Part shown: positions 3,334 through 35,500 of the stretch, piece by piece
Layout of the letters: the number at the start of each line of letters is the position of its first letter
How positions within the stretch are numbered: the first letter of the stretch is position 1
Assembly: GCA_017502875.1 (NCBI GenBank)
Contig: JAFVUF010000012.1
Location: 168,952 to 232,951 of the forward strand
Direction of reading: 5' to 3'
Length of the DNA stretch: 64,000 nucleotides
Source: Clostridia bacterium
Lineage (GTDB): Bacteria > Bacillota > Clostridia > Oscillospirales > CAG-272
Notes under the pieces: model-generated
Databases searched by the model: none
The model's input: the letters and a program-made list of their open reading frames with translations, nothing else
Told to the model about the DNA's origin: nothing
Program-made: the position numbers and the translations under genes

Positions 3334-3670
3334 GTGCCGATTGGCGCAATGACTTTTTCTTTGGGAAGAAGCAGAGCCCAAAGAAAAAGTAACAAAAAGA
3401 AAGGCTCGTTTGGGATATTTCGCTCTCTGCGGAGAGCGAGGAGGGCTACTCGCCCGTCCACCTCGCAAGCTTTTTGAAAAAAGCTTGGCAAAAACTTCTA
3501 AATACTATGAACTTCTGTTTAAGTCTTAGCGTAGCGAAGCGAACCTCGACTTAGCGACCTTCGACGTGAAACGCCCAGATTAGACGGTCGCCTTTTTGCC
3601 TCCAGGCGCTTGCCTGGCGCCGCCATTTGCCCACGGGGGGCGTCCCCGGTCGCCGCAGGTCGTTACCTGC
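3334..3670 (+). repeat. Family-A composite hairpin repeat A2 (near full length, reference copy)
   Basis: GTGCCGATTGGCGCA; GACTTTTTCTTTGGG..CCCAAAGAAAAAGT; CGCTCTCTGCGGAGAGCG; CAAGCTTTTTGAAAAAAGCTTGGCAAAAACTTCT; GCGAACCTCGACTTAGCG; CCAGGCGCTTGCCTGG; GCCGCAGGTCGTTACCTGC abutting the stop at 3671. Confidence 0.9.
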
Positions 3671-8077: not shown

Positions 8078-8310
8078 TCGAGCGCCGCTAAGTCGAGGTT
8101 CGCTACGCTACGCTAAGACTTAAACAGAAGTTCATAGTATTTAGAAGTTTTTGCCAAGCTTTTTTCAAAAAGCTTGCGCCGTCAAGACCGCGTAGGTCTT
8201 GTCGTCCGTCGCAACGGACGAAATACTCTTATCGACCTTTTCTTTTTGTTACTTTTTCTTTGGGGTCTGCTTCTGACCAAAGAAAAAGTTATCGCTCCGC
8301 AGGCGCGACC
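8078..8310 (-). repeat. Family-A repeat A3 (left inverted repeat of the 8349-8890 cassette)
   Basis: GCTAAGTCGAGGTTCGC..AGAAGTTTTTGCCAAGCTTTTTTCAAAAAGCTTG..GTCGTCCGTCGCAACGGACGA..CTTTGGGGTCTGCTTCTGACCAAAG..ATCGCTCCGCAGGCGCGACC. Confidence 0.85.
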
Positions 8311-9116: not shown

Positions 9117-9145
9117 TTGACAAAGCGGTTTTAATATGCTATACT
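9117..9145 (+). promoter_or_regulatory. Sigma-A-type promoter of rplJ-rplL
   Basis: TTGACA, 17-nt spacer, TATACT. Confidence 0.6.
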
Positions 9146-9149
9146 AATC

Positions 9150-9334
9150 AAGTCAAACAAACCAAAGACAGTAGGTTTAAGTAATAATTCAGCTATGCCG
9201 AATTTCCTACCGAGGCGAAAAGACACGGACAAAATAGCATAATTTTTCGTTATGCCCAAGGTACGTATATTTTTCAGTTCTCGGTCGCCGAAATCGGTTA
9301 TCGGGATTTTTTATTTGCCTACGAAAAATCTGTT
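9150..9334 (+). promoter_or_regulatory. Probable L10 (rplJ) ribosomal-protein leader
   Basis: ~185-nt structured untranslated leader between promoter and rplJ, ending in a hairpin plus TTTTTT; assignment is by position, I cannot verify the covariance model by eye. Confidence 0.4.
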
Positions 9335-10590: not shown

Positions 10591-11442
10591 ATGGATATCA
10601 CAACTAAAATACTTATCTGCGACGAAAACGAGGATTTCAGGAGAGTTACGAGAGAGGCGTTAAAAAGCGCAGGCTTTCGAACACCCGACGAGGCATTGAA
10701 CGGCGAGGACACCTTGGCAAAAATATCAAGACTTCACCCCGATATCGTTATAATCGACGTATGGCTTGGCGGCATCGACACTCCCTCGGTCATCAGGCAC
10801 ACCAAAACCATGGACCTCTATCCCGACAAAGCGCCGTATTTTATTGTTACGAGTCAGTTCAACAACCCCGCATTGCTCACCGAGGCCTCTGAGGCCGGCG
10901 CTGACTACTGTATGCTCAAGCCGCTTTCCTACCCTTCGCTCATTGAGCGTATTCGCAGGCTTATGACTAAGCGCAAGGCGGAAACCGAATCTGCATTTGG
11001 CGTTATCAACCCTGAATCATCTAACCCGAAACCCGTAATTTATAAAAACACAGACAGCGTAAGCGCCCAAGGCGGAAACTCAGACTACGCAAGCGCGGAG
11101 CTTGAGTCGCAGGTAACGAAGGTCATTCACCAGATAGGCGTGCCGGCTCACATCAAGGGCTATCAATATCTCCGCACGGCGATACTTATGACGATAAACG
11201 ATAACGACATCATCAATTCCGTAACCAAAATTCTATATCCATCAGTCGCAAAGCAGTACAAAACCACCTCGTCAAGAGTCGAGCGAGCCATTCGCCACGC
11301 CATTGAGGTCGCCTGGGACAGAGGCGACGTAGATACCCTCAATTCCTATTTCGGCTATACGATACAGACCAGCCGCGGCAAGCCTACCAACAGCGAGTTC
11401 ATCGCTATGATTGCCGACAATCTGCGCCTTGCGAATATGTAA
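10591..11442 (+). CDS. spo0A: Sporulation master regulator Spo0A
   Basis: Receiver domain ([14 protein letters not shown]) plus Spo0A C-terminal domain ([34 protein letters not shown]); start at MDITTK with RBS AAGGAG. Confidence 0.9.
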
Positions 11443-11445
11443 ATG

Positions 11446-11484
11446 AAAATGGCAGAGAAATTTCATCTTCTCTGCCATTTTTCT
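11446..11484 (+). terminator. Intrinsic terminator after spo0A
   Basis: AATGGCAGAGAA..TTCTCTGCCATT stem followed by TTTCTC. Confidence 0.65.
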
Positions 11485-11598
11485 CGCTTTTAGTGAAGTT
11501 AAGCTTGCCCTGCTTTGCCGCGCAAAACTTCACTGACCGCAGGACAACTTCACTTACAAGGCAAACTTAGCCGCTTTGTGTCCAAGGACATAAAGCAA

Positions 11599-12792
11599 TT
11601 AATCAACCATAACCGCTTTATCAAGAATGTGCTTCTTTACCTTTTCCCAGATTACCGTACGCTCGGCGAGGTCTTTTCCGTAGTTCTCCTCAACCTGCTC
11701 CGCGGTCTCGCCGCTTTCCGCGGCAATCTTTATCAGCCCCTCGTCGTACTCCTTACCCGAAATGCGTATCTTCTCCGCCTGGATTATCTCGTAAAGAATC
11801 ATCTCCTCCTTTACTATACCCTCGGCGTATTCCTGTCTTGTGCTAATATAGCCGTTCTGGTCGGTGCCAAGCTCCTTTAAAAGCTCCTCAAAGGTCAGCT
11901 CGTTCTGCTCCATCATGGCGTTGTAGTAAGCATCAAACTCGTCTGTATACATCTTTATCTTCTTTTCGGGGTACTTGATTACCTTGCTGTTGTCAACTAT
12001 GCTGTTCCAGAGAAGATTGAGCTTTATCTGCTCGTACATATAGTCCTCGTAAGCCTTAACAGTCGTAAAGCCCTTTTTCAGTCCGAGGAACTCATCAATC
12101 TTTTCGGTGTTGCTTGCGAACAGCTCGTCATTCCATTCGGGAGCAAGGGTTTTTGAAACACTCTTAATGTATATCTCGTGATAAACCTTCTTGCCCTTAG
12201 CCTCAGTTACGTTGTAGTCGTTCGGATAGGTATAGATAAGCGCGGGGACCTTATTCTCATAGTACTCGGTGTTGAAATTGAAGGAGGTTCCTATTATCTG
12301 ATTTTGAAGCTCTGGGAAAAACAATTCAGAGTTTTCGGGAAGATTGTTAAGGTCGTACTTCTTTATTGACTTAATCTCCTTGTCGGAAAAGGAAAGCTTT
12401 GAAAGCTGAGCGCCCTTTACGTCGCCCGTATAGTCGTATGCGACTAATGAAATAACAACGTTGTGTCCCTCGGCAATTTTACCGCTATTTATCAGTTCAA
12501 TGTAAGAAAGAGAGTTGATTAACTCATTCTTTGCCTTATCATATTCGCTCTGTACCTTCGACTGCGAAAGCTCCGCGCCAATATACTTAGCTACCTGAAT
12601 GTGTTCGGGAAGCCTTACAGAGTCGTAGGGGGTGTCGACGAGTATATAGTCAACGGTAAAGAATACGCCAAAGCCTATTCCTATGAGGAGAATAACCGCC
12701 ACGCAGCACATAAGCACGCGTTTTTTTGCCTTAGCGGTAAGCTTCTCTTTATTTTTGGCAGGCCTTCTTGCCGCCTTTTCTTTGTTTTTCAT
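11599..12792 (-). CDS. Membrane-anchored trigger-factor-like / FKBP-PPIase-domain protein
   Basis: 397 aa; Lys-rich N-terminus plus one TM; central FKBP-like and C-terminal trigger-factor-like regions; paralog of the next gene. Confidence 0.45.
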   Translation of the reverse strand: MKNKEKAARRPAKNKEKLTAKAKKRVLMCCVAVILLIGIGFGVFFTVDYILVDTPYDSVRLPEHIQVAKYIGAELSQSKVQSEYDKAKNELINSLSYIELINSGKIAEGHNVVISLVAYDYTGDVKGAQLSKLSFSDKEIKSIKKYDLNNLPENSELFFPELQNQIIGTSFNFNTEYYENKVPALIYTYPNDYNVTEAKGKKVYHEIYIKSVSKTLAPEWNDELFASNTEKIDEFLGLKKGFTTVKAYEDYMYEQIKLNLLWNSIVDNSKVIKYPEKKIKMYTDEFDAYYNAMMEQNELTFEELLKELGTDQNGYISTRQEYAEGIVKEEMILYEIIQAEKIRISGKEYDEGLIKIAAESGETAEQVEENYGKDLAERTVIWEKVKKHILDKAVMVD

Positions 12793-12825
12793 CTTGGAAA
12801 CGCTCCTTTGAATTTATATAACGTT

Positions 12826-13905
12826 TTAATTGCTTTCTATCTTAACATAACCGTTTATGACCTGACAAAGACGGACGTTCAGTACGGTTATAATTGCTAC
12901 GTTCTCGCCCTTGCTTGAAACAAGCGCCTCGTACGTCATACCCTGCTCCGCTTCGACCAGCTTTACAGCCTCGTCAAACTCAGCTCCCTCAGTCTTTATA
13001 CCCTCGGCGCGGACTATGGAATAGGTAAGAAGGTCGTTTACGAGGTTGCTCTTGGCGTAATTGGTTGCGACCTCCTCAAAATCCATCTGATTCATGCCGG
13101 AATATAAGCCAAACTCGGCGTACTTATCGCCGTTTGCCGAGATAAACTCCGCAAATGAAAGCCCGTTCTGCTCCGCAAGCAGCTGGAAATTGCCTTTAAA
13201 ATCCTGATAATATTCCGTGTACTCGGTTGGGTAGCTTTTTATGACGCATTTCGTCATCAGGTCGTCCCATACGTATAGGAAAATACAGCGCTCCCTGACA
13301 AATTTCAGGTACTGCCCCGCCGTATCGAATGCGGTATGCTCGGCGCAAAGCGCGTCGGTAAGCGTTGGCGCGCGATAAATACGGTTGACCGTTACCGAAT
13401 AGGAAACGTCCTTGCCCGCGTAAAGCTCGCTCGGATAATCGCTTGCGAATTTAAGGGAAAGCGTCTTGCTCTGCCCCGCGCTCATTCCGATAATTCCATT
13501 TTCAAAGCCATCTACGTAAAAGGTGTCGGAGCCAAGCGCAAGCAGGTAGCTTTCAGCGCAAAGCGCCTCATCGGGAACGCCGTCGATATAACCCGTAAAT
13601 GAGATTTCAACCATATCCCATTCCTTTGCGCCCTCGTGCGCGACCTCGGTATCAATACTGTTTTCGCGGTAGAAATAAGCAAGCTCGGTGTTTACCAAGC
13701 GGCTCACAAGAGACTCGGAAAGCGTTATGTTCTTGTAATCGGGAACGTCCATAAAGACCGAAAGGTCGTCGTACGGATATGGATTAAACTCCCCGTCGCC
13801 GTCCTCGTCGCCGTCATTGCCGTTACACGATATCAGAAAAACCAGCGAACCCGCAATAAGCCAAACGGCTAAAAATAAGCTTAGAAATTTGATTAATTTA
13901 CGCAT
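12826..13905 (-). CDS. Trigger-factor-like / FKBP-PPIase-domain lipoprotein
   Basis: 359 aa; lipoprotein signal peptide with lipobox LISC; FKBP-like segment VEISFTGYIDGV..GFENGIIGMSAGQSK. Confidence 0.5.
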   Translation of the reverse strand: MRKLIKFLSLFLAVWLIAGSLVFLISCNGNDGDEDGDGEFNPYPYDDLSVFMDVPDYKNITLSESLVSRLVNTELAYFYRENSIDTEVAHEGAKEWDMVEISFTGYIDGVPDEALCAESYLLALGSDTFYVDGFENGIIGMSAGQSKTLSLKFASDYPSELYAGKDVSYSVTVNRIYRAPTLTDALCAEHTAFDTAGQYLKFVRERCIFLYVWDDLMTKCVIKSYPTEYTEYYQDFKGNFQLLAEQNGLSFAEFISANGDKYAEFGLYSGMNQMDFEEVATNYAKSNLVNDLLTYSIVRAEGIKTEGAEFDEAVKLVEAEQGMTYEALVSSKGENVAIITVLNVRLCQVINGYVKIESN

Positions 13906-13983
13906 AACGGTTATTATTATACCACACCTTTATATACACGTCTTTAAGAAAAAGTAAAAAATAATCCCCATATAAACTATTGG

Positions 13984-14997
13984 TTAGTTTTTATAAATCC
14001 CGAATCTAACGGTGGCGTAACCGAAGGCAAGCGCAAGTAAAATCACGCCGACAATCTCACCCGCAACCGAGATATTGAGAGTTACCGCTATCCCGACAAG
14101 CACTATCGCGTATACGTACATAATAGCTACGGCAAGTTTCTGTCCGTATCTTTCGCATAAGCGGTGATGAACGTGCTTCTTGTCTCCGCAGAAAATGCTC
14201 TGCTTTGACATAAGTCTGCGTATAATGGCGAATGACGTGTCAAACACAGGCAGTCCAAGAATCGCAAGCGCCGTAAAGGCGGAAAGCGTGTAGCCCTCAA
14301 CTGTCGGCGAGGAAAATACCGACTCGCAAAGCATTGCGGTAAGCATAAATCCAAAGAACATCGAGCCCGCGTCCCCTAAAAACGTCTTTGCGGGATTTGC
14401 GTTGTGAGGAAGGAAGCCAAGCGCCGCGCAAAGCAGGGTAAGCGCTATCGCAACCACGTTTCCGTCATAGAAAAGGAACGATACGAGCGCTATTCCACCG
14501 CACCCGAAAATCGCGATTCCGGTGCAAAGCCCGTCTACGCCGTCTATTAAATTGATAATATTCGTTACCGCGATAACCATAAATACAGTAACGGGATAAG
14601 CAAAAATCCATAGGTCAAACGTAACGCCGAAAAGCGTTATAAACTGCGCCGTAACGCCAAACGCGCAAAGCGCCACGCCCGCTAAGGCTTGTCCGAGTAT
14701 CTTTATCATCGGTTTAAGACCGAATTTGTCGTCAAGCATGCCTACGGTAACGATTATCAGTCCGCCAACTATGTAAGGAAGCGCCTCAAAGAAGTAACCC
14801 GTAACGCTTATAGCGATAGAAAACGCGAGAAATACCGCTGCTCCGCCAATTCGTGGGGTGGCGTCCTTGTGCATTCTTCGCTCGTCCTTCGGTATGTCCA
14901 TAAACCCTAAAACAGGCGCAAGTCTTATCGCCGGGAACGTCAGTCCAAATCCCAGCCCTAACGCTATTACACATGCTATTAATGTATATAGTTCCAT
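13984..14997 (-). CDS. Glycosyltransferase family 4 (MraY/WecA/TagO-like undecaprenyl-phosphate sugar-1-phosphate transferase)
   Basis: Polytopic membrane protein; DIPKDERRMHKDATPRIGG motif; start trimmed to MELYTL (ATG 14997) because the upstream 43 codons translate repeat B3. Confidence 0.75.
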   Translation of the reverse strand: MELYTLIACVIALGLGFGLTFPAIRLAPVLGFMDIPKDERRMHKDATPRIGGAAVFLAFSIAISVTGYFFEALPYIVGGLIIVTVGMLDDKFGLKPMIKILGQALAGVALCAFGVTAQFITLFGVTFDLWIFAYPVTVFMVIAVTNIINLIDGVDGLCTGIAIFGCGGIALVSFLFYDGNVVAIALTLLCAALGFLPHNANPAKTFLGDAGSMFFGFMLTAMLCESVFSSPTVEGYTLSAFTALAILGLPVFDTSFAIIRRLMSKQSIFCGDKKHVHHRLCERYGQKLAVAIMYVYAIVLVGIAVTLNISVAGEIVGVILLALAFGYATVRFGIYKN

Positions 14998-15016
14998 TTT
15001 ATACCCTTTCGTTAAA

Positions 15017-15105
15017 GAGATACGCGCTTTCTTGAAAGAAAGCTGCGCAAAGAACTTTTGTATACTCGTTGCTCCGCACAAGCACGAAGCAACAAGCATA
15101 TATAG
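15017..15105 (+). repeat. Family-B repeat B3, head-first; head ~20 nt from the GT4 start codon
   Basis: GAGATACGCGCTTTCTTGAAAGAAAGCTGCGCAAAGAACTTTTGTATA plus hairpin CTCGTTGCTCCG/CGAAGCAACAAG plus TATATAG. Confidence 0.9.
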
Positions 15106-15240
15106 TTTTTTCGTGGCTTTTTCCAAAAATATACATTCCCTTAAACAATAAGATTATCACAAAAGGGAACGAAAAATAAATCGCAACGTGAACTTTAAAT
15201 GAGTTATCGCTTTTGAAGAAGTTACATCATTTGAAAAAAC

Positions 15241-15334
15241 TGTGTAAGGATATATAATCGATGCTTCGTATATATGCGAGGCATCGATTATACAGAAGTC
15301 TTTGCGCAGCTTTCTTCAGAAAGCGCGTAACCCC
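15241..15334 (-). repeat. Family-B repeat B4, tail-first; head ~20 nt from the trpS stop codon
   Basis: TATATAATCGATGCTTCGTATATATGCGAGGCATCGATTATACAGAAGTCTTTGCGCAGCTTTCTTCAGAAAGCGCGTAACCCC. Confidence 0.9.
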
Positions 15335-15353
15335 TTCAAGCGCGATAATCCCT

Positions 15354-16352
15354 TTACAGTCCAACGTAACCGATTTTTCTGTGGACCTTAGAGATAGTTT
15401 TACGAGCGATATAATTTGCGCGCTCGGCTCCGTTTTTCATAACGTCCTCAAGGTACTTTTTATCCTTCATCAAGGCGTCGAATTTCTCACGGAGAGGCGC
15501 GAGGCAATCGGCAACAGTCTCACCGACGGCGAGCTTGAAATCTCCGTAGCCCTTGCCCTCAAACTCACGCTCGATAGCCTCAAAGTCCTTACCCGTAAAG
15601 CAGGAATATATGCTCATCAGGTTGTTTATTCCGTCCTTGCCCTCGGCGTAGCGAACAACGGTATCGCTGTCAGTTACCGCGCGCCTGAACTTACGGATAA
15701 TGTCATCACGGGAATCGAGAATACCGACGGAGGCGTTTGGATTTGCGTCCGACTTGCTCATCTTCTTGGTAGGCTCCGCAAGCGACATTATCTTCATACC
15801 CGTCTTTGCGATATAGCCCTCAGGCACAGTAAACGTGTCGCTGTAGCTGTTATTGAAGCGAGTAGCGATATCGCGCGCAAGCTCTAAATGCTGGCGCTGG
15901 TCCTGACCGACGGGAACGAGGTCCGCCTGATAAAGCAGAATATCCGCCGCCATAAGCACAGGATAGGTAAAAAGACCGGCGTTTATGTTGTCCGCGTGCT
16001 TTAAGCTCTTGTCCTTGAACTGCGTCATTCGAGAAAGCTCGCCGAACATCGTGTAGCAGCCGAGGTCCCACGCGAGAACCGCGTGCGCGGGCACGTGGCT
16101 CTGTACGAAAAGGGTGTTCTTTTCGGGGTCAAGCCCTGCCGCCATATAGACCGCAAGCGTCTCGTAGGTACGGGCGCGAAGCTCCGCGGGCACCTGGCGC
16201 ACCGTTATCGCGTGCATATCAACTACACAGTAAATGCAGTTGTATTCATCTTGAAGCGCAGTCCAGTTCTTTATCGCTCCAAGATAGTTTCCTATCGTTA
16301 AATTTCCGCTCGGCTGAACTCCCGAGAATATCGTTTTCTTCTGTTGTTCCAT
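15354..16352 (-). CDS. trpS: Tryptophan--tRNA ligase
   Basis: 332 aa; class I motifs (GVQPSGNLTIGNY, KMSKS). Confidence 0.95.
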   Translation of the reverse strand: MEQQKKTIFSGVQPSGNLTIGNYLGAIKNWTALQDEYNCIYCVVDMHAITVRQVPAELRARTYETLAVYMAAGLDPEKNTLFVQSHVPAHAVLAWDLGCYTMFGELSRMTQFKDKSLKHADNINAGLFTYPVLMAADILLYQADLVPVGQDQRQHLELARDIATRFNNSYSDTFTVPEGYIAKTGMKIMSLAEPTKKMSKSDANPNASVGILDSRDDIIRKFRRAVTDSDTVVRYAEGKDGINNLMSIYSCFTGKDFEAIEREFEGKGYGDFKLAVGETVADCLAPLREKFDALMKDKKYLEDVMKNGAERANYIARKTISKVHRKIGYVGL

Positions 16353-16380
16353 GGTGTACCCTTTCTAAATTTGTACAAAA

Positions 16381-16467
16381 GGGATTACGCGCTTTTCGAG
16401 AAAAGCTACGCAAAAGCTTCTGTACGACGAAGCCGCACCCCACGGGGTATCGCTTCGTCATATGTAG
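16381..16467 (+). repeat. Family-B repeat B5, head-first; head ~29 nt from the trpS start codon
   Basis: GGGATTACGCGCTTTTCGAGAAAAGCTACGCAAAAGCTTCTGTAC plus hairpin GACGAAGC../..GCTTCGTC plus TATGTAG. Confidence 0.85.
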
Positions 16468-16604
16468 TTTTTATAGCTTTCACAAACACCGTACCGCTTC
16501 TATACATACCTGAATAGGTATAAAACGGAACGGAGAATGATATATCTCATTGTTAGATAAGATTGATAAGCATTTTTGCAGGAATTACGGAATTTTTGAA
16601 AACC

Positions 16605-16741
16605 GTGTAAGGATATATAATCGATGCTTCGTATATATGCGAGGCATCGATTATACAAAAGTCTTTGCGCCGACGTTTGCAAAGCAAACTCGTAAGAAAA
16701 CTTTAGTTTTTAAAGCTTCTCTTCAGAAAGCGCGTAACCCC
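16605..16741 (-). repeat. Family-B repeat B6 (extended variant), tail-first; head ~23 nt from the rimO stop
   Basis: Same tail hairpin as B4, then GCGCCGACGTTTGCAAAGCAAACTCGTAAGAAAACTTTAGTTTTTAAAGC insert, then TTCTCTTCAGAAAGCGCGTAACCCC. Confidence 0.9.
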
Positions 16742-16763
16742 TTCAAAACGCTAATCACTCTTA

Positions 16764-18101
16764 TTATTTCCCAATTTGAGCTATTTCGCAAACGAGGTCA
16801 TAGTCAATGGCGTCTGTAATAACGACGTCAACCATATCCCCCGGTGCGAAGGCGTTTTTCGGAGCGCCGACGAGATAAAGCTTCCCGTCGATTTCGGGCG
16901 CCTCCTTTTCGGTGCGGCAGAAATAGCTGTCGGAAACGGGGTCGTAGCCCTCGACCATAGCAATCTCTCGTTTACCAACACGCGCGGAATTTATCCTCTC
17001 GGCAATTTTGTTCTGCTGCTTCATTACGGCGTCGTAACGGCGCTTTTTCTTCTGCTCCGGCAGATGACCGTCAAGCTTTTCGGCAGGCGTACCCTCCTCT
17101 TTTGAGTAGGTAAACGCCCCGAGGCGCTCAAACTTAGTATCGGCAAGATAATTTATCAGCTCCTCAAACTGCTCGCCCGTCTCACCGGGAAAGCCGACGA
17201 TGACCGTGGTGCGAATGATGATACCGGGACAAGCCTTTCTAAGTCTTGCAACGGCGTCCTCGATAACCGCGCGTCCGCCGTGTCGGTTCATTCTTTTCAG
17301 AACCCCGTCGCTGATGTGCTGAATAGGCATATCTATGTATTTAACAAGCCTGTCGTTGCTTCTGAACTGCTCGCAAAGCCCGTCGGTTATCTTGTCAGGG
17401 TAGCAGTAAAGCACCCTTATCCACGGAATATTCGTTTCGTCGGTTATGCGCTGAATAAGCATATCAAGCTTAAAATCTCCGTAAATATCTAACCCGTAAC
17501 GCGTGGTGTCCTGCGCCACAAGTATAAGCTCGCGTACGCCGAGCGCCTCCATATCCTTTGCCTCGGCAATAAGCTCCTCGATAGGTCTTGAACGGAACGC
17601 GCCGCGAATATCGGGGATAGCGCAGTAGGTGCAGCGGTTGTCGCAGCCCTCGGCTATCTTCATATATGCGTAATGCTCAGGCGTGGTTACTATACGGTCT
17701 CCGCCAAGCGCCGCCTCCTCAGGCTTTTTCAGCACCGAAAAGCGCTCGCCCTTCACAACTCTTTGAACAACACTTACAACGTCGTGAATAGCGCCGACTG
17801 ACATTATGGCGTCAACCTCGGGGAACTGTGCGAGTATCTCGTCGCCGTATCTCTGCACGAGGCAGCCGCAAACAACAAGCTTTTTAAGCCTTGCGTTCTC
17901 TTTAAGCCACGCAAGGTCGAGAATGTTGTCAATCGCCTCCGTTTTGGCGTCCTTTATGAAGCCGCAGGTATTCAGAATGATTACGTCAGCCTCGGTCTCC
18001 TCGGCGCATATCTCGTAACCCGCGGCGTTTAATTCACTTAACATTACCTCAGTGTCAAGCTGATTTTTAGGACACCCAAGGCTTACAAATCCTACTTTCA
18101 T
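16764..18101 (-). CDS. rimO: Ribosomal protein S12 methylthiotransferase RimO
   Basis: N-terminal VSLGCPKNQLDTE, radical-SAM CDNRCTYC, C-terminal TRAM domain; start trimmed to MKVGFV (RBS GGAGATG). Confidence 0.8.
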   Translation of the reverse strand: MKVGFVSLGCPKNQLDTEVMLSELNAAGYEICAEETEADVIILNTCGFIKDAKTEAIDNILDLAWLKENARLKKLVVCGCLVQRYGDEILAQFPEVDAIMSVGAIHDVVSVVQRVVKGERFSVLKKPEEAALGGDRIVTTPEHYAYMKIAEGCDNRCTYCAIPDIRGAFRSRPIEELIAEAKDMEALGVRELILVAQDTTRYGLDIYGDFKLDMLIQRITDETNIPWIRVLYCYPDKITDGLCEQFRSNDRLVKYIDMPIQHISDGVLKRMNRHGGRAVIEDAVARLRKACPGIIIRTTVIVGFPGETGEQFEELINYLADTKFERLGAFTYSKEEGTPAEKLDGHLPEQKKKRRYDAVMKQQNKIAERINSARVGKREIAMVEGYDPVSDSYFCRTEKEAPEIDGKLYLVGAPKNAFAPGDMVDVVITDAIDYDLVCEIAQIGK

Positions 18102-18126
18102 AGATACATCTCCAAAAAGAGTTTTC

Positions 18127-18290
18127 ATTCTTTCTTAAAAGAAAGAATCAAAGAACTTCTCTTACAAGCGAGGACGCTTTGTAAGAGCAAATCTTCGGCT
18201 TTTAAGCTTTTTCGTCCTCGCTTGTAAGAGAAAGCACTTGATTTTCTCTCACAAAACTATGAGAACACTTCAAAAGAACTAACCCAAAAA
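18127..18290 (+). repeat. Family-B-like repeat B7 (variant head), head next to the rimO start
   Basis: ATTCTTTCTTAAAAGAAAGAATCAAAGAACTTCT plus long hairpin CTTACAAGCGAGGACG../..CGTCCTCGCTTGTAAGAG; second small hairpin follows. Confidence 0.7.
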
Positions 18291-18296
18291 CCGAAT

Positions 18297-18899
18297 TTAG
18301 TCTATCTCACCTATCGCATAGGTTATTTCGCTCGCGGAAAAGCCCGCGTTTGAAAGCGAACGCATTATCTGCTCCTTGGTCTTGCCAAGCGCTCTCATTT
18401 TTTCAGCGGCGCGCGCGCAATTCTCCCTAAAATCTATCTCGCTTAAATCAAGAGCCTCGACGGTTTCCCTTGAAATGCCCTTTGAGGCGAGATAGGCGAA
18501 AATTTTGCGTCTGCCGTTAAGCTTAGCGGCAAGCTTTTCGGCGGCGTTTTGAGCCAGACGGATATCGTTTATATACCCAAAGCCCTTGAGATAATCAACG
18601 GCGTCGTCCGTTTCATCGCGCCCGTAACCGCGAATTCTCATTTTTTCACGAAGTCCGCGCTCGGTATATGCGCTTCTTGCGACAAGCGACATAGCGTATT
18701 CTCTTGGTGGGCGCCGACCAGCAGCGGCAGAAGCTCCCGGTCGACGTATAGAGTCGCCATCGTCCTCTACGTCCCGTTCAATCGCACCCGGCAGGGACCG
18801 CCCTGCAGCGGTAAAGGCTCCCGCCCGGTGCACAGTTCCATCTGTTAAACGCTCAGCCCTTTTTCTGTTTTCATCAGGCTCACCAAGTTTTTTTCGCAT
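18297..18899 (-). CDS. recX: Recombination regulator RecX
   Basis: 200 aa; downstream of recA; RecX three-helix repeats (YTERGLREKM.., DDAVDYLKGFGYINDIRLA.., RRKIFAYLASKGIS..); N-terminal part holds an atypical GC-rich segment. Confidence 0.75.
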   Translation of the reverse strand: MRKKLGEPDENRKRAERLTDGTVHRAGAFTAAGRSLPGAIERDVEDDGDSIRRPGASAAAGRRPPREYAMSLVARSAYTERGLREKMRIRGYGRDETDDAVDYLKGFGYINDIRLAQNAAEKLAAKLNGRRKIFAYLASKGISRETVEALDLSEIDFRENCARAAEKMRALGKTKEQIMRSLSNAGFSASEITYAIGEID

Positions 18900-18925
18900 G
18901 TATTACCCCTAAGATTTTAAACATA

Positions 18926-19477
18926 TGTCGTGCCGACAGCACGATGACTTTTTCTTTTGGAAGAAGCAGAGCCATTTAACCTCGAATTCGCTCTGCGACA
19001 AACAGTAAGCCGCAGCTTTGCTTCGCATAGACGCAAATTCTGGCAGATGACTGAGATTAAGTGTAAATTCAAGTAACAAAAAGAAAGGCTCGGTAAAAGC
19101 ATGTCGTCCGTTACGACGGACGACAAGACCTACGCGGTCTTGACTGCGCAAGCTTTTTGAAAAAAGCTTGGCAAAAACTTCTAAATACTATGAACTTCTG
19201 TTTAAGTCTTAGCGTAGCGTAGCGAACCTCGACTTAGCGGCGCTTGAAATGCTCGACGTTCTCAAAAGCACGCGCCGCCATTTGCCCCCGGGCGCGCGCC
19301 CGGTGAAAAAGGTGGGCGAAAACTTTTTTAACACTGTGAACTTCTGTTTAAGCCTTAGCATAGCGTATCGAACCCCGACTTAGCGACCTTCGACGTGAAA
19401 CGCCCAGATTAAACGGTCGCCTTTTTGCCTCCAGGCGCTCGCCTGGCGCCGCAGTTTCGCCGCAGGTCGTTACCTGC
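18926..19477 (+). repeat. Family-A composite A5 (about two elements; first hairpin arm replaced by a 97-nt segment)
   Basis: All A modules in order, ending GCCGCAGGTCGTTACCTGC at 19459-19477, directly abutting the recA stop (19478). Confidence 0.9.
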
Positions 19478-20596
19478 TTAGTCGTCGAGCTTTACGTCAA
19501 AGAGGTCGTCGTCATCGTCGTCAAGGGCGTCCGCCTTGTCGCTTTCGGTCATCTCCATAGCTTCAAGATTACCGCTTGCTCTGACCTTTTTCTCAACCTC
19601 GGCAAACAGCTCTCTGTCGCTTTCAAGCACCGCGCGGATATTATCCTTACCCTGTCCGAGACGTTTTCCGTCAAAGCTGAACCACGAGCCGCTTTTTTCA
19701 ATTATATCAAGCTCGATAGCAAGGTCAAGCAGCTCGCCCGACTTTGAAATTCCCTTTCCAAACAGGATATCGAACTCCGCGGTCTTGAACGGGGGCGCAA
19801 CCTTGTTCTTAACGACCTTGCACTTAACTCTGTTTCCGTAGGTTTCGGCGCCGTTTTTAAGCGCCTCTCCCTTTCTGACCTCGATACGAACCGAGGCGTA
19901 GAATTTAAGCGCGCGTCCACCCGTCGTTACCTCGGGGTTTCCGTACATAACGCCAACCTTTTCACGAAGCTGGTTAATGAAGATACAAACGCAGTTTGCC
20001 TTAGCGACAGCGCCCGAAAGCTTTCTCATCGCCTGGCTCATAAGCCTTGCGTGAGCGCCGACGTTTGACTGACCCATATCGCCGTCAATCTCCTGCTGGG
20101 GAACGAGCGCGGCAACGGAGTCGATAATTATGGCGTCGATAGCGCCCGAGCGAACCAGCGCCTCGGTAATTTCAAGCGCCTGCTCGCCGCTGTCGGGCTG
20201 AGATATAAGAAGCTCGTTGATATCAACGCCGAGCGCCTTTGCGTAAACAGGGTCAAGAGCGTGCTCCGCGTCGATAAAAGCGGCGGTTCCGCCCGTTTTC
20301 TGAACCTCCGCGGCGACGTGAAGCGCAACGGTGGTCTTACCTGACGACTCAGGTCCGTAAATTTCAATTATTCTACCTCTCGGCATACCGCCTATACCGA
20401 GGGCGGCGTCAAGCATAATAGAGCCTGTCGATACGGCGCTGACCTGCATTTTGGCATTTTCGCCAAGACGCATAATAGTACCCTGGCCGTAAGCCTTGGT
20501 TATATGAGCGATAGCTGTATCGAGAGCCTTCTTTTTATCAAGGGCGGGGTTGCCTGTGCTTTCCGCTTCCTTTACTTCCTTTTTAGCCTTTGCCAT
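19478..20596 (-). CDS. recA: Recombinase RecA
   Basis: Walker [10 protein letters not shown], highly conserved RecA core; start placed at MAKAKK (ATG 20596, RBS AAGGAA); alternative ATG at 20614. Confidence 0.95.
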
Positions 20597-20642
20597 AGTT
20601 TTAGTTCCTTTCATTTCAAAAATTTAGGAGTTATCTTTTACA

Positions 20643-20760
20643 AAAGTTTTCGTCCACCTTTTTCAAAAGGTGGCGCGGTCAAGGCTGCGAAAGCCTTGTC
20701 GTCCGTCATAGCGGACGAAACCTTCCCTGCGGCGATTTTTTTTGCGAGCTTTTGCGTAGG
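20643..20760 (-). repeat. Family-A partial repeat A10
   Basis: AAAGTTTTCGTCCACCTTTTTCAAAAGGTGGCG; GTCAAGGCTGCGAAAGCCTTGTC; GTCCGTCATAGCGGACGAAA. Confidence 0.75.
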
Positions 20761-20761
20761 C

Positions 20762-21337
20762 TTACGCTAAATTATCAAAGCGCCAGCCGTTTTCTGTCAT
20801 TATCATCGTGGTTTTCTTGTCGGACGCCTGCTTTACCCCGTTTAGGTAACGGGGAGCGCCTATTTCGACTGTTCCCGACGAGGAACGGATAACGTACGCT
20901 GCGTCAAGGTCGTTCCTTGCGCCCGTTATGCTCTCAAAGGCGTCGTACGTAACGTCCGTCATAAGAGCTCCGTCCTGCACCTTGTACCTCGGATAAACAG
21001 TCGCGTACTTGTCCTCAATACCGTCAAACAGAACCGCTTTAAGCACGTCGTTATAGTAATCCTCGGTGTAAACGTCAAGCACCGCCTTCTCGATATCTTC
21101 AAGGCTTTTGTACGGACAGTCCTCTGAAACCGCTACGTAGTGAGGAGCCGTAAGCTCGCTTACATCTCCCCCGTAGCCGTGCATAAGTCCGTTTCCGTAA
21201 ACTATTCCGTTTACCGCCTGCGCCTTTTCATAAAGCGCCTTGTATTCGGCAAGCGCCTCGCTGTCGCTTATCTTACCGCAGGACACCGCCGTAAGCGCTG
21301 TTATAACGGCTAACACTAATATCAGGAATTTTTTCAT
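20762..21337 (-). CDS. Hypothetical lipoprotein
   Basis: Start trimmed to MKKFLILVLAVITALTAVSC (lipobox); no family recognised. Confidence 0.55.
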   Translation of the reverse strand: MKKFLILVLAVITALTAVSCGKISDSEALAEYKALYEKAQAVNGIVYGNGLMHGYGGDVSELTAPHYVAVSEDCPYKSLEDIEKAVLDVYTEDYYNDVLKAVLFDGIEDKYATVYPRYKVQDGALMTDVTYDAFESITGARNDLDAAYVIRSSSGTVEIGAPRYLNGVKQASDKKTTMIMTENGWRFDNLA

Positions 21338-21341
21338 TTGC

Positions 21342-23882
21342 TTATTCCTTAGTTTCGTCATTTGAGGGTGCGATTGAAGCTTCGTTTTCCTCACTTAGCG
21401 GCTGCTCGTCAGAGGTGTCATCGCCGCGACCGACGTTGGCAACCGCGCTGACCTTACCCTCTCCCGTCCTCATAACGATAACTCCGCTTGCGGTTCTGCT
21501 GTACTCGGATATATCGCGAACGTGGGTGCGTATGGTAATTCCGTTGTCGGAAATGATAACTATATCGTCCTCGTCCTCAACCGCCGTTATCGCCGCAAGC
21601 TTACCGGTCTTGTCGCTGAGTCCGTGAACTCTTACGCCCTTACCGCCTCTGTTAGTCGTTCTGAAATCGTCAAAGCCGCTTCTCTTTCCAAAGCCGTTCT
21701 CGGTCATCGTGAGAAGCTTCTTCGTTTCGTCAACCAGCACGCAGCCGACTACGTAGTCGCCCTCGCCAAGTCTTATACCGCGGACTCCGCGAGCGCCTCT
21801 GCCCATTACTCTGGCGTTGTTCTCGTCAAAGCGGACGGCGTTACCGTCGTGGCTCGCTATTACGATAGCGTCCTGACCTGAGGTGTGGCGAACGTAAACC
21901 AGCTCGTCGTCCTCGTCAAGATTAATCGCCTTCTTACCCTTCTTGCGCTGGAACGCGAACTCGGAAAGCGCCGTTCTCTTGACGGTTCCCTTCTTTGTAA
22001 CCATAAGCAGATACTCGTCGTCATTGTACGACTCGTCGCTTACAGATATCATCGAGGTTATCTTCTCGCCCTTTTCAATCTCAATTACATTTACGGCGTT
22101 GATTCCCTTAGCGATTCTGCTCGCCTCAGGCACCTTGTACGCTCTTATCGTGAATACCTTGCCAAGACTTGTGAACATCATAAGGTCGGAGTGCGTATCG
22201 CACGCGATAACCGTCTCAACGAAGTCCTCTTCCTTGGTCGTAATTCCCTTTACGCCCTTGCCGCCTCTTGCCTGAGCGTTATACGCCTCGGCAGACATAC
22301 GCTTTAAGTAGCCGCTGTGCGTCATCGTGATAACGCAGGTGTGGCGGTCGATAAGGTCCTCGTCGTCAAGGTCGGCGTCGAAGCTTATCTCCGTTCTTCT
22401 CGGGTCGGCAAACTTGTTCTTTATCTCGGTTATCTCGTCCTTTATTATCTGCTTTATCTTGTCCATGCTCGAAAGCTTGTCCGTTATGTCAAAGATTACC
22501 GCTTCAAGACGAGCAAGTCTTTCCTCTATCTTTGCCCTTTCAAGTCCCGTCAGCTTTCCAAGCGTCATCTCGACTATCGCCTGAGCCTGCGGCTCTGTAA
22601 GTCCGTAAATATCGCAGAGCTTTGCCTTTGCGTCGGGAATGCTGTCGGCGCCCTTGATAAGCGCGATAATGTCGTCTATATTATCGGAAGCTATTTTCAG
22701 TCCCTCTAAAATGTGCGCTTCCTTTTTCGCCTTTTCAAGCTCATATTTAAGACGGCGGACCGTAATGTTCTCCTGATGCTCAATATAGTGATTAAGCATA
22801 GCCTTGAGTCCGAGAACTCTCGGCACGTTGTCCACCAGCGCCAGCATATTAGCGGCGAAGGTGTCTTCAAGACGGGTGTACTTGTAAAGCTGGTTTAAAA
22901 GCACATGTCCGTTTACGTCGCGGCGGTACTCGATAACGATACGCAGACCGTCCTTGCCCGACTCATCGCGGACGTCGGTTATTCCGTCTACCTTCTTGTC
23001 CTTTTTGTCCTTCTTGTCCTTGCTCTCGTTTGCGCAGTTACATATTCCCTCGACAAGCGAGACCTTGTTCACCTGATAAGGTATTTCTGTAACGATTATG
23101 CGGTGGTTCTCCTCGTCAACCGTTGCTCTGGCTCTTACCTTGATGTGCCCCTTACCCGTCTCGTAGGCGTTACGTACTCCGGAAAGTCCGCAGATTATAG
23201 CGCCCGTCGGGAAGTCGGGAGCCTTGATGAACTGCATAAGGTCGTCGGTTGTAGCGTCGGGGTTGTCCATTAAATAGATAACTCCGTCTATTATCTCGCC
23301 TAAGTTGTGGGTTGGAATATTCGTCGCCATACCGACAGCGATTCCTATTGAGCCGTTAACCAGCAGGTTCGGGAAACGCGCGGGAAGAACAACAGGCTCT
23401 TTGAGCTTGTTGTCGAAGTTCGGGGTGAAGTCTACGACGTCCTTTTCGATGTCCGTAAGCATATGGTCGGCAAGCTTGCTCATTCTCGCCTCGGTGTAAC
23501 GGTAAGCGGCAGCGCTGTCTCCGTCAATGTTACCGAAGTTTCCGTGTCCGTCAACAAGCGGATAGCGGAGCGAGAAATCCTGCGCCATTCTTACCATCGT
23601 GTCGTAAACCGCCGTGTCTCCGTGAGGGTGATAGCGGCCAAGCACGTTACCTACCGTGGTCGCTGACTTGCGGAACGGCTTGTCGTACGTAAGGTGGTCC
23701 TCGTACATAGCGTAAAGTATGCGGCGGTGTACGGGCTTGAAGCCGTCGCGTACGTCAGGCAGAGCTCTGGACATTATTACACTCATCGCGTAGTTGATGA
23801 AGGATGTCTTTACCTCCTGTCCCATGTTTACCGGTACTATCTTTTGTTCCTTAAATTCGATATCGTCCTGTTTCTTTTCCAT
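21342..23882 (-). CDS. gyrA: DNA gyrase subunit A
   Basis: 846 aa; active-site region [14 protein letters not shown]-like [11 protein letters not shown]-terminal beta-pinwheel repeats. Confidence 0.97.
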
Positions 23883-23922
23883 CTTGATATCCTTTCGTTA
23901 TGAGAGTAAGCGCCACACGCAA

Positions 23923-24004
23923 GGGAATACGCGCTTTTCGAGAAAAGCTGCGCAAAAGCTTTTCTACGACGAAGCCACCCCAAAAGGAGTACCTTCGTCG
24001 TAAA
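23923..24004 (+). repeat. Family-B repeat B8, head-first; head ~41 nt from the gyrA start
   Basis: GGGAATACGCGCTTTTCGAGAAAAGCTGCGCAAAAGCTTTTCTAC plus hairpin GACGAAGCC../..CCTTCGTCG. Confidence 0.9.
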
Positions 24005-24120
24005 TCAGGCATTGTGAGCTCTGCCCAAAAAACGAACCCCTCTGCGTAAAGTGCGTATTTCGCTGAAATAATATTTTGTTCTTTTTGATGTGTAATTTTT
24101 TTGTGTATGTATAAGAAATA

Positions 24121-24399
24121 TGTGGAAAAATGTTGAAAAATGGGGGTAAAAATTTTTGTCCACACGAAATCAACAGAAAAACGGAAGTTTTCCACAGTTT
24201 TGGAGAGTTTTCCACATAGGTTTTCCACAGTTTATGTTAAAAAGCGGTTTTTTTGAGGTGCGATATGGGGTTTTCGGGTGTTGAAAACTCAATTTTTGAG
24301 GTTTTCCCTAAGCAACAATTTATTGTGAATAGCAATTTTCAAGAAGTTTTCCACAATCTTTTTCATACCCTGTGGAAAACTTTTTCATCTCTTTCCACA
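24121..24399. promoter_or_regulatory. DnaA-box cluster (8 box-like 9-mers) with adjacent AT-rich tract
   Basis: TTTTCCACA at 24188, 24208, 24221, 24347; TGTGGAAAA at 24121, 24371; TTGTCCACA at 24156; CTTTCCACA at 24391; AT-rich 24061-24120. Confidence 0.75.
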
Positions 24400-24535
24400 T
24401 TATTTATAACTCTCCGCTTTTTAACGGATTACCTGTTAATACTTTTTAGTCTTGATATTTTGCCGGTCGAAGTAATAGGAACAAGCGCTTCTTTTTAAGA
24501 GAATATCACATTTTGCGGAGAGCCGAACAGAAACC

Positions 24536-24666
24536 TATATATAATCGACGCATCGTGCTTTTTACGAGGCGGCGATTATACAGAAGCTTTTGCGCCGACG
24601 TTTGCAAAGCAAACTCGTAAGGAAACTTTAGTTTCTAAAGCTTCTTCTCGAAAAGCGCGTATCCCC
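24536..24666 (-). repeat. Family-B repeat B9 (extended variant), tail-first; head ~38 nt from the gyrB stop
   Basis: TATATATAATCGACGCATCG..CGAGGCGGCGATTATACAGAAGCTTTTGCGCCGACGTTTGCAAAGCAAACTCGTAAGGAAACTTTAGTTTCTAAAGCTTCTTCTCGAAAAGCGCGTATCCCC. Confidence 0.9.
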
Positions 24667-24703
24667 TTAGAAAGCCTGCGTTTACTCCTATTACCCCCAA
24701 CCG

Positions 24704-26839
<2,136 letters not shown>

Positions 26840-26930
26840 TCAGTTGGGTTTATTAAATTTTTATTGGATAGATATGATGTTGTGAGGTAGGTGAACGTTC
26901 TTTTGATTAAATCTACGAAATAATTCTTTT

Positions 26931-27037
26931 GCGCCGATAGACAAAAGCGATCATAGTTTAGCCTTGAACTAATATTAAGTCTATCGGTGTAAAAGAAGTT
27001 TTTGCGCAGCTTTTTTCAAAAAGCGCGTATTCCCCCC
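26931..27037 (-). repeat. Family-B repeat B11, tail-first; head overlaps the DUF370 stop codon
   Basis: Hairpin GCGCCGATAGAC../..GTCTATCGGTGT then AAAAGAAGTTTTTGCGCAGCTTTTTTCAAAAAGCGCGTATTCCCCCC. Confidence 0.85.
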
Positions 27038-27285
27038 TATCTAAACACATATTTAGTACGGGCGGCGAGGATTTTGACGGCGTACTGAGAAAGGTAAACC
27101 GTACCGTCCTTCATAACGATAAAGGACTTTGGAAGCTCTGTTCCCGTCATAATAACTCTGCCCTGCTTTTCCGCCGTTTTAAAATACTCCTTAGCGGTTT
27201 TAGTCTGCTGTGCCGTATCAAGATCGAAAATTCCGACTATCTCGTCAGTCCGAACTATCTTTTCCGGCGCTATCGTTATAAACAT
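27037..27285 (-). CDS. DUF370 protein (RemB/YaaB-like)
   Basis: 82 aa; conserved position between recF and gyrB as in other Firmicutes; DUF370-like sequence (IVGIFDLD..). Confidence 0.75.
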   Translation of the reverse strand: MFITIAPEKIVRTDEIVGIFDLDTAQQTKTAKEYFKTAEKQGRVIMTGTELPKSFIVMKDGTVYLSQYAVKILAARTKYVFR

Positions 27286-27371
27286 TTGTTTCTCCGAAAT
27301 TTAAGTAATGCTTTAAATGCTTTGTGCCTGCTCTGATTTCTTTTACTCTGTTTTGGTAAAAAACGAGGATT

Positions 27372-27447
27372 TCTCACACAAATAATGTCCTTTTTGGATA
27401 TTGTTTGTGTGAGAGAAGTTCTTTGTTTCTTTCTTTTAAGAAAGAAT
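27372..27447 (-). repeat. Family-B-like repeat B12 (variant head), tail-first; head ~12 nt from the recF stop
   Basis: Hairpin TCTCACACAAA../..TTTGTGTGAGA then GAAGTTCTTTGTTTCTTTCTTTTAAGAAAGAA. Confidence 0.7.
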
Positions 27448-27458
27448 AAAAAAGAAAA

Positions 27459-28514
27459 TCAAAGTAGAACCGAGCCGTTTGAAACGTTAAATATTTTACC
27501 GGTACGGATATCGTCGCAGCCGGTGATAATAACCTGCTTATCGTAAAGCCCGGTAAGAATAAACGCCTTTCTGTTCTTATCAAGCTCGCTCATAATATCG
27601 TCAAAGAGGAAAACGGGATACTCTCCGCAAATCTCATTGGAAATCTCACCCTCCGCAACCTTCATTGCAAGCGCGATACTTCTCTGCTGTCCCTGCGAGG
27701 CGTACACACGGCTATCAAGACCGTTAAGCGTAACGGAAATATCGTCCTTTTGAATACCGTAGAGCGTGGTTTTCGCCATTATTTCCTTTTCGATATTACC
27801 CGTAAGCAGACGGACGTACTCGTCCTCGCCCAGCAGCGTCTCATATGAGAGCTTAACCTTTTCCATTCCGCCCGTCATATTGTAAATGAGATGCTCGACG
27901 TGTCCGTGCAGCCTCTTAATATACCTATCGCGGTGCGCCGAAATAAACGCCGCCTCCTTTGCCATCTGCAAGGAAATAACGTGGATAAGGTCGTAAAAGC
28001 CGACGGTTTCTGGCTCTTTTAGCAGCGCGTTTCTCTGTGTAAGCAGCTTTTTGTACGTAGACAGCGCCGCCATATAAGCGGGATATATCTGCGAAATCGC
28101 TATATCGCAAAAATTTCGCCTCTCGCCCGGTCCGTCCTTAATTATAGATAGATGCTCAGGACTGAACAGTACCGCCCTGAAAACGCCGATAAAATCGCTC
28201 ATACGGGAAATTTTTATTCCCTCTTTAAAGCAAAGCTTACGTTCTCCCGAAAAAAGTCTTACCTCGTGGGTACGTTCTCTTTCCTCATCGGAAAAGCAAA
28301 TTGTAACGCTTCCCTCGTCCTGACCTATACGGACAAGCTCACGGTCGCAAGCGCCCCGAAAGCTCTTTCCGCAAGCGAAATAGTATATACCCTCAAGCAG
28401 ATTTGTCTTTCCCTGCGCGTTAAAGCCTTGAAAAACGTTAACCTCTCTGTCGGGCTTAATCTCCGCGTATTCAATATTGCGGTAATTTTTGTAGATTATT
28501 TTTGTGATGTACAT
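27459..28514 (-). CDS. recF: DNA replication/repair protein RecF
   Basis: Walker A GFNAQGKTNLLE, SMC-like signature; start trimmed to MYITKIIYKNYRN (ATG 28514). Confidence 0.9.
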   Translation of the reverse strand: MYITKIIYKNYRNIEYAEIKPDREVNVFQGFNAQGKTNLLEGIYYFACGKSFRGACDRELVRIGQDEGSVTICFSDEERERTHEVRLFSGERKLCFKEGIKISRMSDFIGVFRAVLFSPEHLSIIKDGPGERRNFCDIAISQIYPAYMAALSTYKKLLTQRNALLKEPETVGFYDLIHVISLQMAKEAAFISAHRDRYIKRLHGHVEHLIYNMTGGMEKVKLSYETLLGEDEYVRLLTGNIEKEIMAKTTLYGIQKDDISVTLNGLDSRVYASQGQQRSIALAMKVAEGEISNEICGEYPVFLFDDIMSELDKNRKAFILTGLYDKQVIITGCDDIRTGKIFNVSNGSVLL

Positions 28515-28543
28515 AATTTTATTAAAACATTTTAATTGTTGTT

Positions 28544-29131
28544 GTGCCTGTTGGCACAAGCTTTTTGAAAAAAGCTTGACCAAAACTTCTCTTACGGGCT
28601 GCCGCCCAACACTTAACAAACACTTACTCTGTTTAAAATCTTTACAAGGAAGCCGTAGGCTTTAACTTAGCGGCGCTCGAAATGCTCAACGTTCTCAAAA
28701 GTACGCGCCGCCAATTCGCCAACGGGGGCGTCCCCGGTCGCCGCAGGCCGTTGCCTGCCGTCGCCATTTGCCTCCAGGCGCTCGCCTGGCGCAATGACTT
28801 TTTCTTTGGGAAGAAGCAGAGCCCAAAGAAAAAGTAACAAAAAGAAAGGCTCGTTTGGGATATTTCGCTCTCTGCGGAGAGCGACAAGGCTCCGCGCCTT
28901 GACTGCGCCGCCTTTTGAAAAAGGTGGGCGAAAACTTCTAAGCATTGTGAACTTCTGTGCAAACCTTAGTGTAGCGAAGCGAACCTCGACTTAGCGGCGC
29001 TCGAAATGTTCGACGTTCTCAAAACTACACGCCGCCATTTGCCTCCGGGCGCTTGCCTGGCGCCGCCATTTGCCTACAGGCGCTTGCCTGGCGATTGCCA
29101 TTTGCCTACAGGCGCTCGCCTGCCGATTGCC
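28544..29131 (+). repeat. Family-A composite array A6 (at least two elements plus extra CCAGGCG hairpin units)
   Basis: GTGCCTGTTGGCACAAGCTTTTTGAAAAAAGCTTG..; GCAGGCCGTTGCCTGC variant hairpin; second full module series; three tandem GCCATTTGCCT(C/A)C(A/G)GGCGCT(T/C)GCCTGGCG units; overlaps the degV 3' end. Confidence 0.9.
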
Positions 29132-35342: not shown

Positions 35343-35471
35343 CTATATAATCAATGCTTCGTATATATGCGAGGCATTGATTATACAAAAGCTTTTGCGC
35401 CGACGTTTGCAAAGCAAACTCGTAAGGAAACTTTAGTTTCTAAAGCTTCTTCTCGAAAAGCGCGTATCTCC
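35343..35471 (-). repeat. Family-B repeat B14 (extended variant), tail-first; head ~30 nt before the DJ-1 start
   Basis: TATATAATCAATGCTTCGTATATATGCGAGGCATTGATTATACAAAAGCTTTTGCGCCGACGTTTGCAAAGCAAACTCGTAAGGAAACTTTAGTTTCTAAAGCTTCTTCTCGAAAAGCGCGTATCTCC. Confidence 0.9.
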
Positions 35472-35500
35472 TTCTACCAAAACGTTGAAAGGAAAATCAT

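Follow-up and report, generated by a model that had tools for sequence, protein, structure and literature searches.

A conserved DnaA-box cluster between gyrB and gyrA in uncultured Clostridia: probably an origin-proximal DnaA-binding locus and not the chromosome-opening site

The spacer between gyrB and gyrA in the 64,000-nt stretch of clostridial DNA analysed here (the window) contains a dense set of DnaA boxes that is probably an origin-proximal DnaA-box cluster and not the site at which the chromosome opens, as judged by sequence comparison and by analogy with characterized systems. About ten boxes with at most one mismatch lie within 280 bp of the spacer, where they are arranged as two modules, and the cluster is present at the same locus and with the same layout in eight relatives (L100-L107) whose GyrA proteins are 63-95% identical to that of the window. 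Three readings had been offered in the initial annotation, namely a relocated or secondary origin, a DnaA-titrating cluster of the DBC or datA type, and DnaA-dependent regulation of gyrA. The titrating cluster is the best supported of the three, and the relocated or secondary origin is not supported by the data described below. Full-text literature searches returned no report of a DnaA-box cluster or an origin between gyrB and gyrA.

The gyrB-gyrA spacer and its DnaA boxes

The spacer lies within a minus-strand series of genes in the order DegV, recF, a remA-like gene, gyrB, spacer, gyrA, a 191-aa gene, recA, recX and rimO. The gyrA gene (21342-23882, minus strand) encodes 846 aa and was identified by the NCBIfam DNA gyrase subunit A model (1109 bits). 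The gyrB gene (24704-26611, minus strand) encodes 635 aa. Its ORF had been listed from a TTG at 26746, which is an upstream over-extension: the NCBIfam DNA gyrase subunit B match begins at residue 45 of that longer ORF, and the gene call in L001, a metagenome contig retrieved by exact GyrA look-up, agrees with the shorter coordinates. The resulting spacer is 821 bp long. None of the spacer ORFs checked was plausible, the small ones appearing spurious, and an Rfam search of the spacer gave no match reaching the gathering score, with three weak matches far below threshold. The sole Rfam family at or above its gathering score in the window was the ribosomal protein L10 leader (RF00557, 47 bits) at 9144-9322 (+).

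Six exact copies of TTTTCCACA, a documented DnaA-box variant, were found at 24121(-), 24188(+), 24208(+), 24221(+), 24347(+) and 24371(-), together with TTGTCCACA at 24156(+) and CTTTCCACA at 24391-24399(+), as initially annotated. The cluster had been slightly understated, since further near-boxes of the form TTTTCAACA are present at 24131-24139(-) and 24279-24287(-). A degenerate TTTTTCATA also occurs at 24359-24367(+), where the relatives carry an intact box. All six exact copies of TTTTCCACA fall within 260 bp (24121-24379) and no others occur in the 64-kb window, while shuffled sequences contained a mean of 0.40 and a maximum of 2 copies per window.

The best-conserved part of the cluster is module 1 (24347-24399), which comprises CTTTCCACA at 24391-24399(+), TTTTCCACA at 24371-24379(-), TTTTTCATA at 24359-24367(+) and TTTTCCACA at 24347-24355(+). 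Read in gene orientation, the box order is -,+,-,- with 3-bp gaps among the last three boxes. Module 1 is adjoined at 24320-24346 by a motif, CTTCTTGAAAATTGCTATTC in gene orientation, that contains invariant columns in the alignment of relatives; conservation next to the box triple reaches beyond the boxes themselves. The motif may be a -35-like element or the site of another protein. A second ATTGC is located ~25 nt downstream of it. The gap between the modules (24230-24319) is variable and holds a single near-box, the TTTTCAACA at 24279-24287(-). Module 2 (24121-24229) contains TTTTCCACA at 24221, 24208 and 24188 (+), TTGTCCACA at 24156 (+), and a tandem of TTTTCAACA at 24131-24139(-) and TTTTCCACA at 24121-24129(-), and equivalent boxes are found in all relatives.

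Immediately to the left of the boxes is the AT-rich tract described initially (24061-24120), which has an AT content of ~78-82%, below that of the spacers on either side of dnaA in the sister contig. The tract holds the sole sigma-70-like match directed toward gyrA in the window spacer, a weak one just after the last box (-35 ATTACA, 24096-24091; -10 TATTAT, 24073-24068). Promoter-like matches at the CTTCTTGAAAATTGCTATTC motif were obtained in L101 and L104 only. Promoter and terminator scans across the relatives gave no consistent pattern, and the gyrA promoter could not be placed relative to the boxes.

Conservation among relatives and the flanking repeats

Relatives were collected by protein search with GyrA, and eight contexts from uncultured, Oscillospiraceae-like Clostridia contigs were compared (GyrA identity to the window: L100 95%, L101 84%, L102 79%, L103 and L104 77%, L105 71%, L106 65%, L107 63%). 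The only clade names on record are "Ruminococcaceae/Oscillospiraceae bacterium" and "Clostridiales bacterium". Where the contigs reach, the gene order is rpmH|dnaA-dnaN-recF-remA-gyrB-spacer-gyrA-X-recA-recX, with a gyrB-gyrA spacer of 314-821 bp. Boxes with at most one mismatch from TTATCCACA or TTTTCCACA number 4-11 per gyrB-gyrA spacer, 3-7 per dnaA-dnaN spacer and 0-1 per rpmH-dnaA spacer. Exact TT[AT]TCCACA occurs 38 times in 4.6 kb of gyrB-gyrA spacer from nine loci versus twice in the 171 kb elsewhere, an enrichment of ~700-fold.

The shared layout reads, from the gyrB side, (-)CTTTCCACA ... (+)TTTTCCACA-ggg-(-)TGTGGAAAG-nnn-(-)TGTGGAAAA, followed by a conserved CTTCTTGAAAATTGCTAT motif. 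Toward gyrA there follow a variable gap of ~115-160 bp, two to four (-) boxes and finally one or two (+) boxes. L100-L104 all retain the triple TTTTCCACA-ggg-TGTGGAAAG-nnn-TGTGGAAAA, which can still be recognised in L105 and L107. Over the alignment, 53% of box columns were invariant as opposed to 27% of non-box columns (p = 5e-6).

Outgroups with GyrA identities of <=61% were obtained from a GyrA scan of genome contigs; the corresponding scan of metagenome contigs yielded distant sequences only. No boxes were found in the gyrB-gyrA spacer of more distant Clostridia in which gyrB and gyrA are adjacent (GyrA ~50%). The Acutalibacteraceae outgroups L005, L009 and L057, which are MAGs, have a box-free rpmH-dnaA spacer and a dnaA-dnaN module with TTTTCCACA-type boxes, and zero boxes between gyrB and gyrA. 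The cluster is therefore an add-on of one clade that is not needed by the origin. Replacement of a lost incAB region upstream of dnaA by the cluster was also considered and was rejected, as these outgroups likewise have no boxes upstream of dnaA and yet no gyrB-gyrA cluster. Their box-free gyrB-gyrA spacers are 1.1 kb long with 29-33% GC (L005 8857-9990, L009 8871-9990, L057 8851-9990). The rpmH-dnaA spacer reaches 95% AT with 0-1 boxes in both the clade and the outgroup (L001 1096-1774; L102-L107; L005/L009/L057), and the classical box cluster upstream of dnaA, hence box-based dnaA autoregulation, appears to be missing in both. Two sister assemblies, L079 (9979-12518) and L081 (5051-7590), have gyrA called as two ORFs of 297 and 520 aa, which suggests a frameshift, a sequencing error or a strain-level pseudogene.

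The initial annotation had also placed the cluster inside an inverted pair of family-B repeats and had likened it to cargo of a repeat-bounded segment. Inverted arms do exist, but they amount to only 24 nt each (23921-23944 and 24645-24668) and belong to two different dispersed elements sharing a ~30-nt module. B9 (24537-24668) is a ~132-nt dispersed repeat just downstream of gyrB, with full-length copies at 35344-35473 and 16613-16743 as well as partial copies. B8 (23910-24054) is a palindromic dispersed repeat in the gyrA leader with its core at 23921-23998; ~4 copies of this 76-nt core occur in the window. Both elements are confined to the species of the window (L001, L100), B9 being absent in L101 and L102 and B8 in L101-L103, and the cluster stays in place in relatives without them. 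A mobile segment bounded by B repeats was rejected on these grounds and on the limited ~30-nt similarity, and the repeats are regarded as later species-specific insertions with no role in the cluster. B8 folds into a long predicted hairpin (-71.4 kcal/mol, z = -6.1) that could affect the stability or translation of the gyrA mRNA.

The probable unwinding site and the absence of dnaA and dnaN from the window

The genes dnaA and dnaN are absent from the 64-kb window, as had been pointed out, but this is not a feature of the lineage. L001 is 99.94% identical to the window over 29043..11342 and carries yidD-rnpA-dnaA-dnaN directly upstream of recF, with dnaA at L001 1775-3202. Exact look-up of RecF recovered an unbroken dnaA-dnaN-recF-remA-gyrB-gyrA series in three independent assemblies, and a fourth contig ends at a repeat upstream of recF. 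From 28779 onward the window matches a second sister contig, L108, at 99.99% identity; in L108 the genes after DegV are a 199-aa gene, rpsO and pnp. The homologies to L001 and L108 overlap inside a dispersed repeat of ~265 nt at 28779-29043 (L001 4817-5080, L108 7277-7540), where the recF-gyrB-gyrA arrangement of L001 gives way to the DegV-HTH-FtsK arrangement of L108; the outer ~90 nt of the window copy differ from the L001 copy. Exact look-up of the long DegV ORF of the window gave no match, and the start of this ORF is probably over-extended.

The two genes are thus missing because the sequence switches partner inside this repeat. The window contig joins two loci there, either by real recombination in the form of an origin-spanning inversion or by chimeric assembly, and under both readings the absence of dnaA and dnaN is not a lineage property. 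An origin-spanning inversion would fit the uniform GC skew of the window. The junction affects any replichore or synteny analysis of the assembly. Several dispersed intergenic repeat families of 70-300 nt and 82-97% identity are unusually abundant, and sister metagenome contigs repeatedly end at them. Examples are located at 3342-3623, 8078-8287, 15236-15307, 16379-16743, 19147-19385, 26673-26761, 28736-29063, 35344-35474, 48700-48771, 59766-60241 and 63777-64000.

The basal unwinding system of bacterial origins consists of a DnaA box, a spacer of <=16 bp often containing a second box and a short GC-rich stretch, and >=3 DnaA-trios (NAN motifs, consensus 3'-GAT-5'), followed by AT-rich DNA (PMC8287927). 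The initial annotation had called for dnaA and its own box clusters to be located, and a module of this kind was found beside dnaA in the sister and related contigs. In 8/8 loci that include it, the dnaA-dnaN spacer contains tandem boxes, a CCCC spacer, 5-11 CTA DnaA-trios and an AT-rich tract. In L103, for example, the module reads TTTTCCACC-GTTTCAACA-CCCC-CTA CTA CTA CTG CTA CTA and continues into AT-rich repeats of the ATTTGAA type. It is located upstream of the gyrB-gyrA cluster at a conserved distance of 5.5-6 kb in eight related contigs.

Neither a CTA-type trio array nor a GC spacer was present beside the boxes in any gyrB-gyrA spacer examined. The best trio-like runs in these spacers were 4-5 unrelated, non-CTA NTN triplets in AT-rich DNA and were not conserved. 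The AT content after the last box is 82% in the species of the window and 64-78% in most relatives, compared to 74-92% in the dnaA-dnaN spacers, and no conserved AT-rich unwinding element was found beside the gyrB-gyrA boxes among the relatives. Genes on both sides of the window spacer are on the minus strand, and the strand switch in the relatives is at rpmH|dnaA. To the left and right of the spacer alike the GC skew is negative, and the cumulative curve keeps falling as it passes 24 kb, a comparison that has weak power over only 6 kb. The unwinding module between dnaA and dnaN, taken together with the lack of a skew or gene-direction switch at the gyrB-gyrA spacer, points to the dnaA-dnaN spacer as the most likely site of chromosome unwinding. 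This is the arrangement of B. subtilis and C. difficile. Given that the same module occurs in the outgroups without gyrB-gyrA boxes, the origin in this order looks like a single unit. In these genomes, origin predictors based on box counting would probably pick the gyrB-gyrA spacer as oriC, although replication more likely starts in the trio-bearing dnaA-dnaN spacer.

Proposed role of the cluster and competing explanations

The gyrB-gyrA cluster is best filed as a further case of the origin-proximal DnaA-box clusters and not as a relocated origin. To our knowledge, experimental work on such clusters has been confined almost entirely to B. subtilis and E. coli. The B. subtilis DBCs (Okumura et al. 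2012, PMC3245932) are intergenic and mostly oriC-proximal, and the genes next to them vary from species to species. They are stably bound by DnaA, hold back initiation and control adjacent genes. The present cluster resembles them in having multiple intergenic consensus-like boxes that are separate from the unwinding region, close to oriC (5.5-6 kb from dnaA-dnaN in eight contigs, the linkage being interrupted in the window at the possibly chimeric repeat junction) and beside a potentially regulated gene. It differs in its position, since gyrB-gyrA is none of the six B. subtilis DBC sites (PMC3245932), and in its use of the TTTTCCACA variant, its two-module layout and its conserved +,-,- triple. 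Like E. coli datA, it offers a handful of high-affinity boxes whose early duplication could lower the amount of active DnaA. It differs in that the organism is a Firmicute-type bacterium with different DnaA regulators, whereas datA acts by IHF-dependent DnaA-ATP hydrolysis at a distance of ~470 kb from oriC.

In the proposed mechanism, domain IV of DnaA would occupy the high-affinity boxes and form a stable complex bound to double-stranded DNA. Because adjacent DnaA-trios are absent, such a complex would be unable to melt the DNA. The cluster would be copied within seconds of initiation, so that DnaA-binding capacity would double at once, leaving less free active DnaA and damping re-initiation as proposed for the B. 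subtilis DBCs and E. coli datA. Since the complex would cover the promoter and leader region of gyrA, transcription of gyrA would probably also follow DnaA occupancy; this additional role of the cluster is conjecture. Firmicute DnaA exchanges nucleotide rapidly and is subject to other regulators such as YabA and Soj, which makes the weight of titration uncertain. A point against the proposed role is that the cluster has more consensus boxes than the dnaA-dnaN spacer, which would be compatible with a direct role in initiation as well.

Such a direct role is assumed if the cluster is the second half of a bipartite origin, with DnaA looping over dnaN-recF-remA-gyrB so that the cluster helps to load the dnaA-dnaN module in the manner of incAB in B. 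subtilis or oriC1 in H. pylori. Nowhere else near the origin are consensus boxes so dense, the cluster's 5.5-6 kb distance to the unwinding module is conserved, and the rpmH-dnaA spacer, which is the site of the second cluster in Bacillus and Clostridium, holds 0-1 boxes throughout the clade. Like the incAB and oriC1 halves of B. subtilis, Clostridium and H. pylori, the cluster is box-rich, lacks an unwinding element and is near a second region that has one. Those halves, however, lie directly upstream of dnaA, and the two parts of known bipartite origins enclose a single gene (~1.5 kb), whereas the present cluster is downstream of gyrB and separated from the unwinding module by four genes and ~5.5 kb. 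The outgroups do without it while sharing the box-free rpmH-dnaA spacer and the dnaA-dnaN module, in keeping with an origin that appears to be a single unit, and if the window junction is real, the cluster is >35 kb from dnaA-dnaN in a viable strain. We consider a bipartite origin unlikely on this evidence. A long-range split origin, in which the spacer is a high-affinity anchor that loops 5.5 kb across four genes to a box-poor dnaA-dnaN module, is quite improbable. Were both the split origin and the window junction true, the strain would constitute a natural experiment with the two halves separated by an origin-spanning inversion. Initiation in the spacer itself, as a functional relocated or secondary origin with 24061-24120 as the unwinding element, would account for dense boxes adjoining a tract of 78-82% AT and for a window lacking dnaA and dnaN. 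It is very improbable, because no box is accompanied by a GC spacer or CTA trio array, the AT tract is not conserved in relatives, gene direction and the sign of the GC skew are the same across the spacer, all relatives have a complete unwinding module in dnaA-dnaN, and the junction inside the repeat explains the absence of dnaA.

The boxes might instead form a purely transcriptional operator at which DnaA represses, activates or roadblocks gyrA and couples GyrA supply to replication with no effect on initiation. DnaA is known to act on the transcription of replication-related genes (PMC3245932, PMC9879097), the cluster is always directly upstream of gyrA, the only promoter-like site of the window spacer is just past the last box, and module 1 is adjoined by a conserved TTGAAA motif that resembles a -35 element. 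Ten boxes in two modules over 280 bp are nevertheless far beyond a typical operator, the promoter predictions are not conserved in position, and any cluster beside oriC titrates DnaA regardless of its other roles; an operator function alone is therefore rather unlikely. The repeats could also be 9-12-mers of consensus (A)AGTTTTCCACA bound by a regulator other than DnaA, as conservation runs 2-3 nt past the 9-mer with AAG before TTTTCCACA. This is the most improbable of the alternatives, given that the motif differs from the universal DnaA box at a single position and that the tandem boxes of the dnaA-dnaN module in these genomes are of the same variant.

Under the preferred reading as an origin-proximal DnaA-box cluster, the gyrB-gyrA spacer is a strongly conserved example at a fixed and easily recognised locus in a clade of uncultured gut or rumen-type Clostridia. 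It lends weight to the view that additional DnaA sinks are common in the neighbourhood of oriC, and is a clean candidate for studying DnaA titration or DnaA-gyrase coupling outside the model organisms. The conserved TTTTCCACA-3 bp-TGTGGAAAG-3 bp-TGTGGAAAA triple (+,-,-) may be compared with the core of E. coli DARS1 and DARS2, which has three tight boxes, the first opposed to the other two, with 5 bp between boxes I and II (PMC6868365). Its gaps of 3 bp differ from that 5-bp spacing, and the resemblance is a lead only. The distance from the last module-1 box to the first exact module-2 box is 126-127 bp (~12 helical turns) in L001, L101 and L103, and this distance is 149-160 bp in two other lineages.
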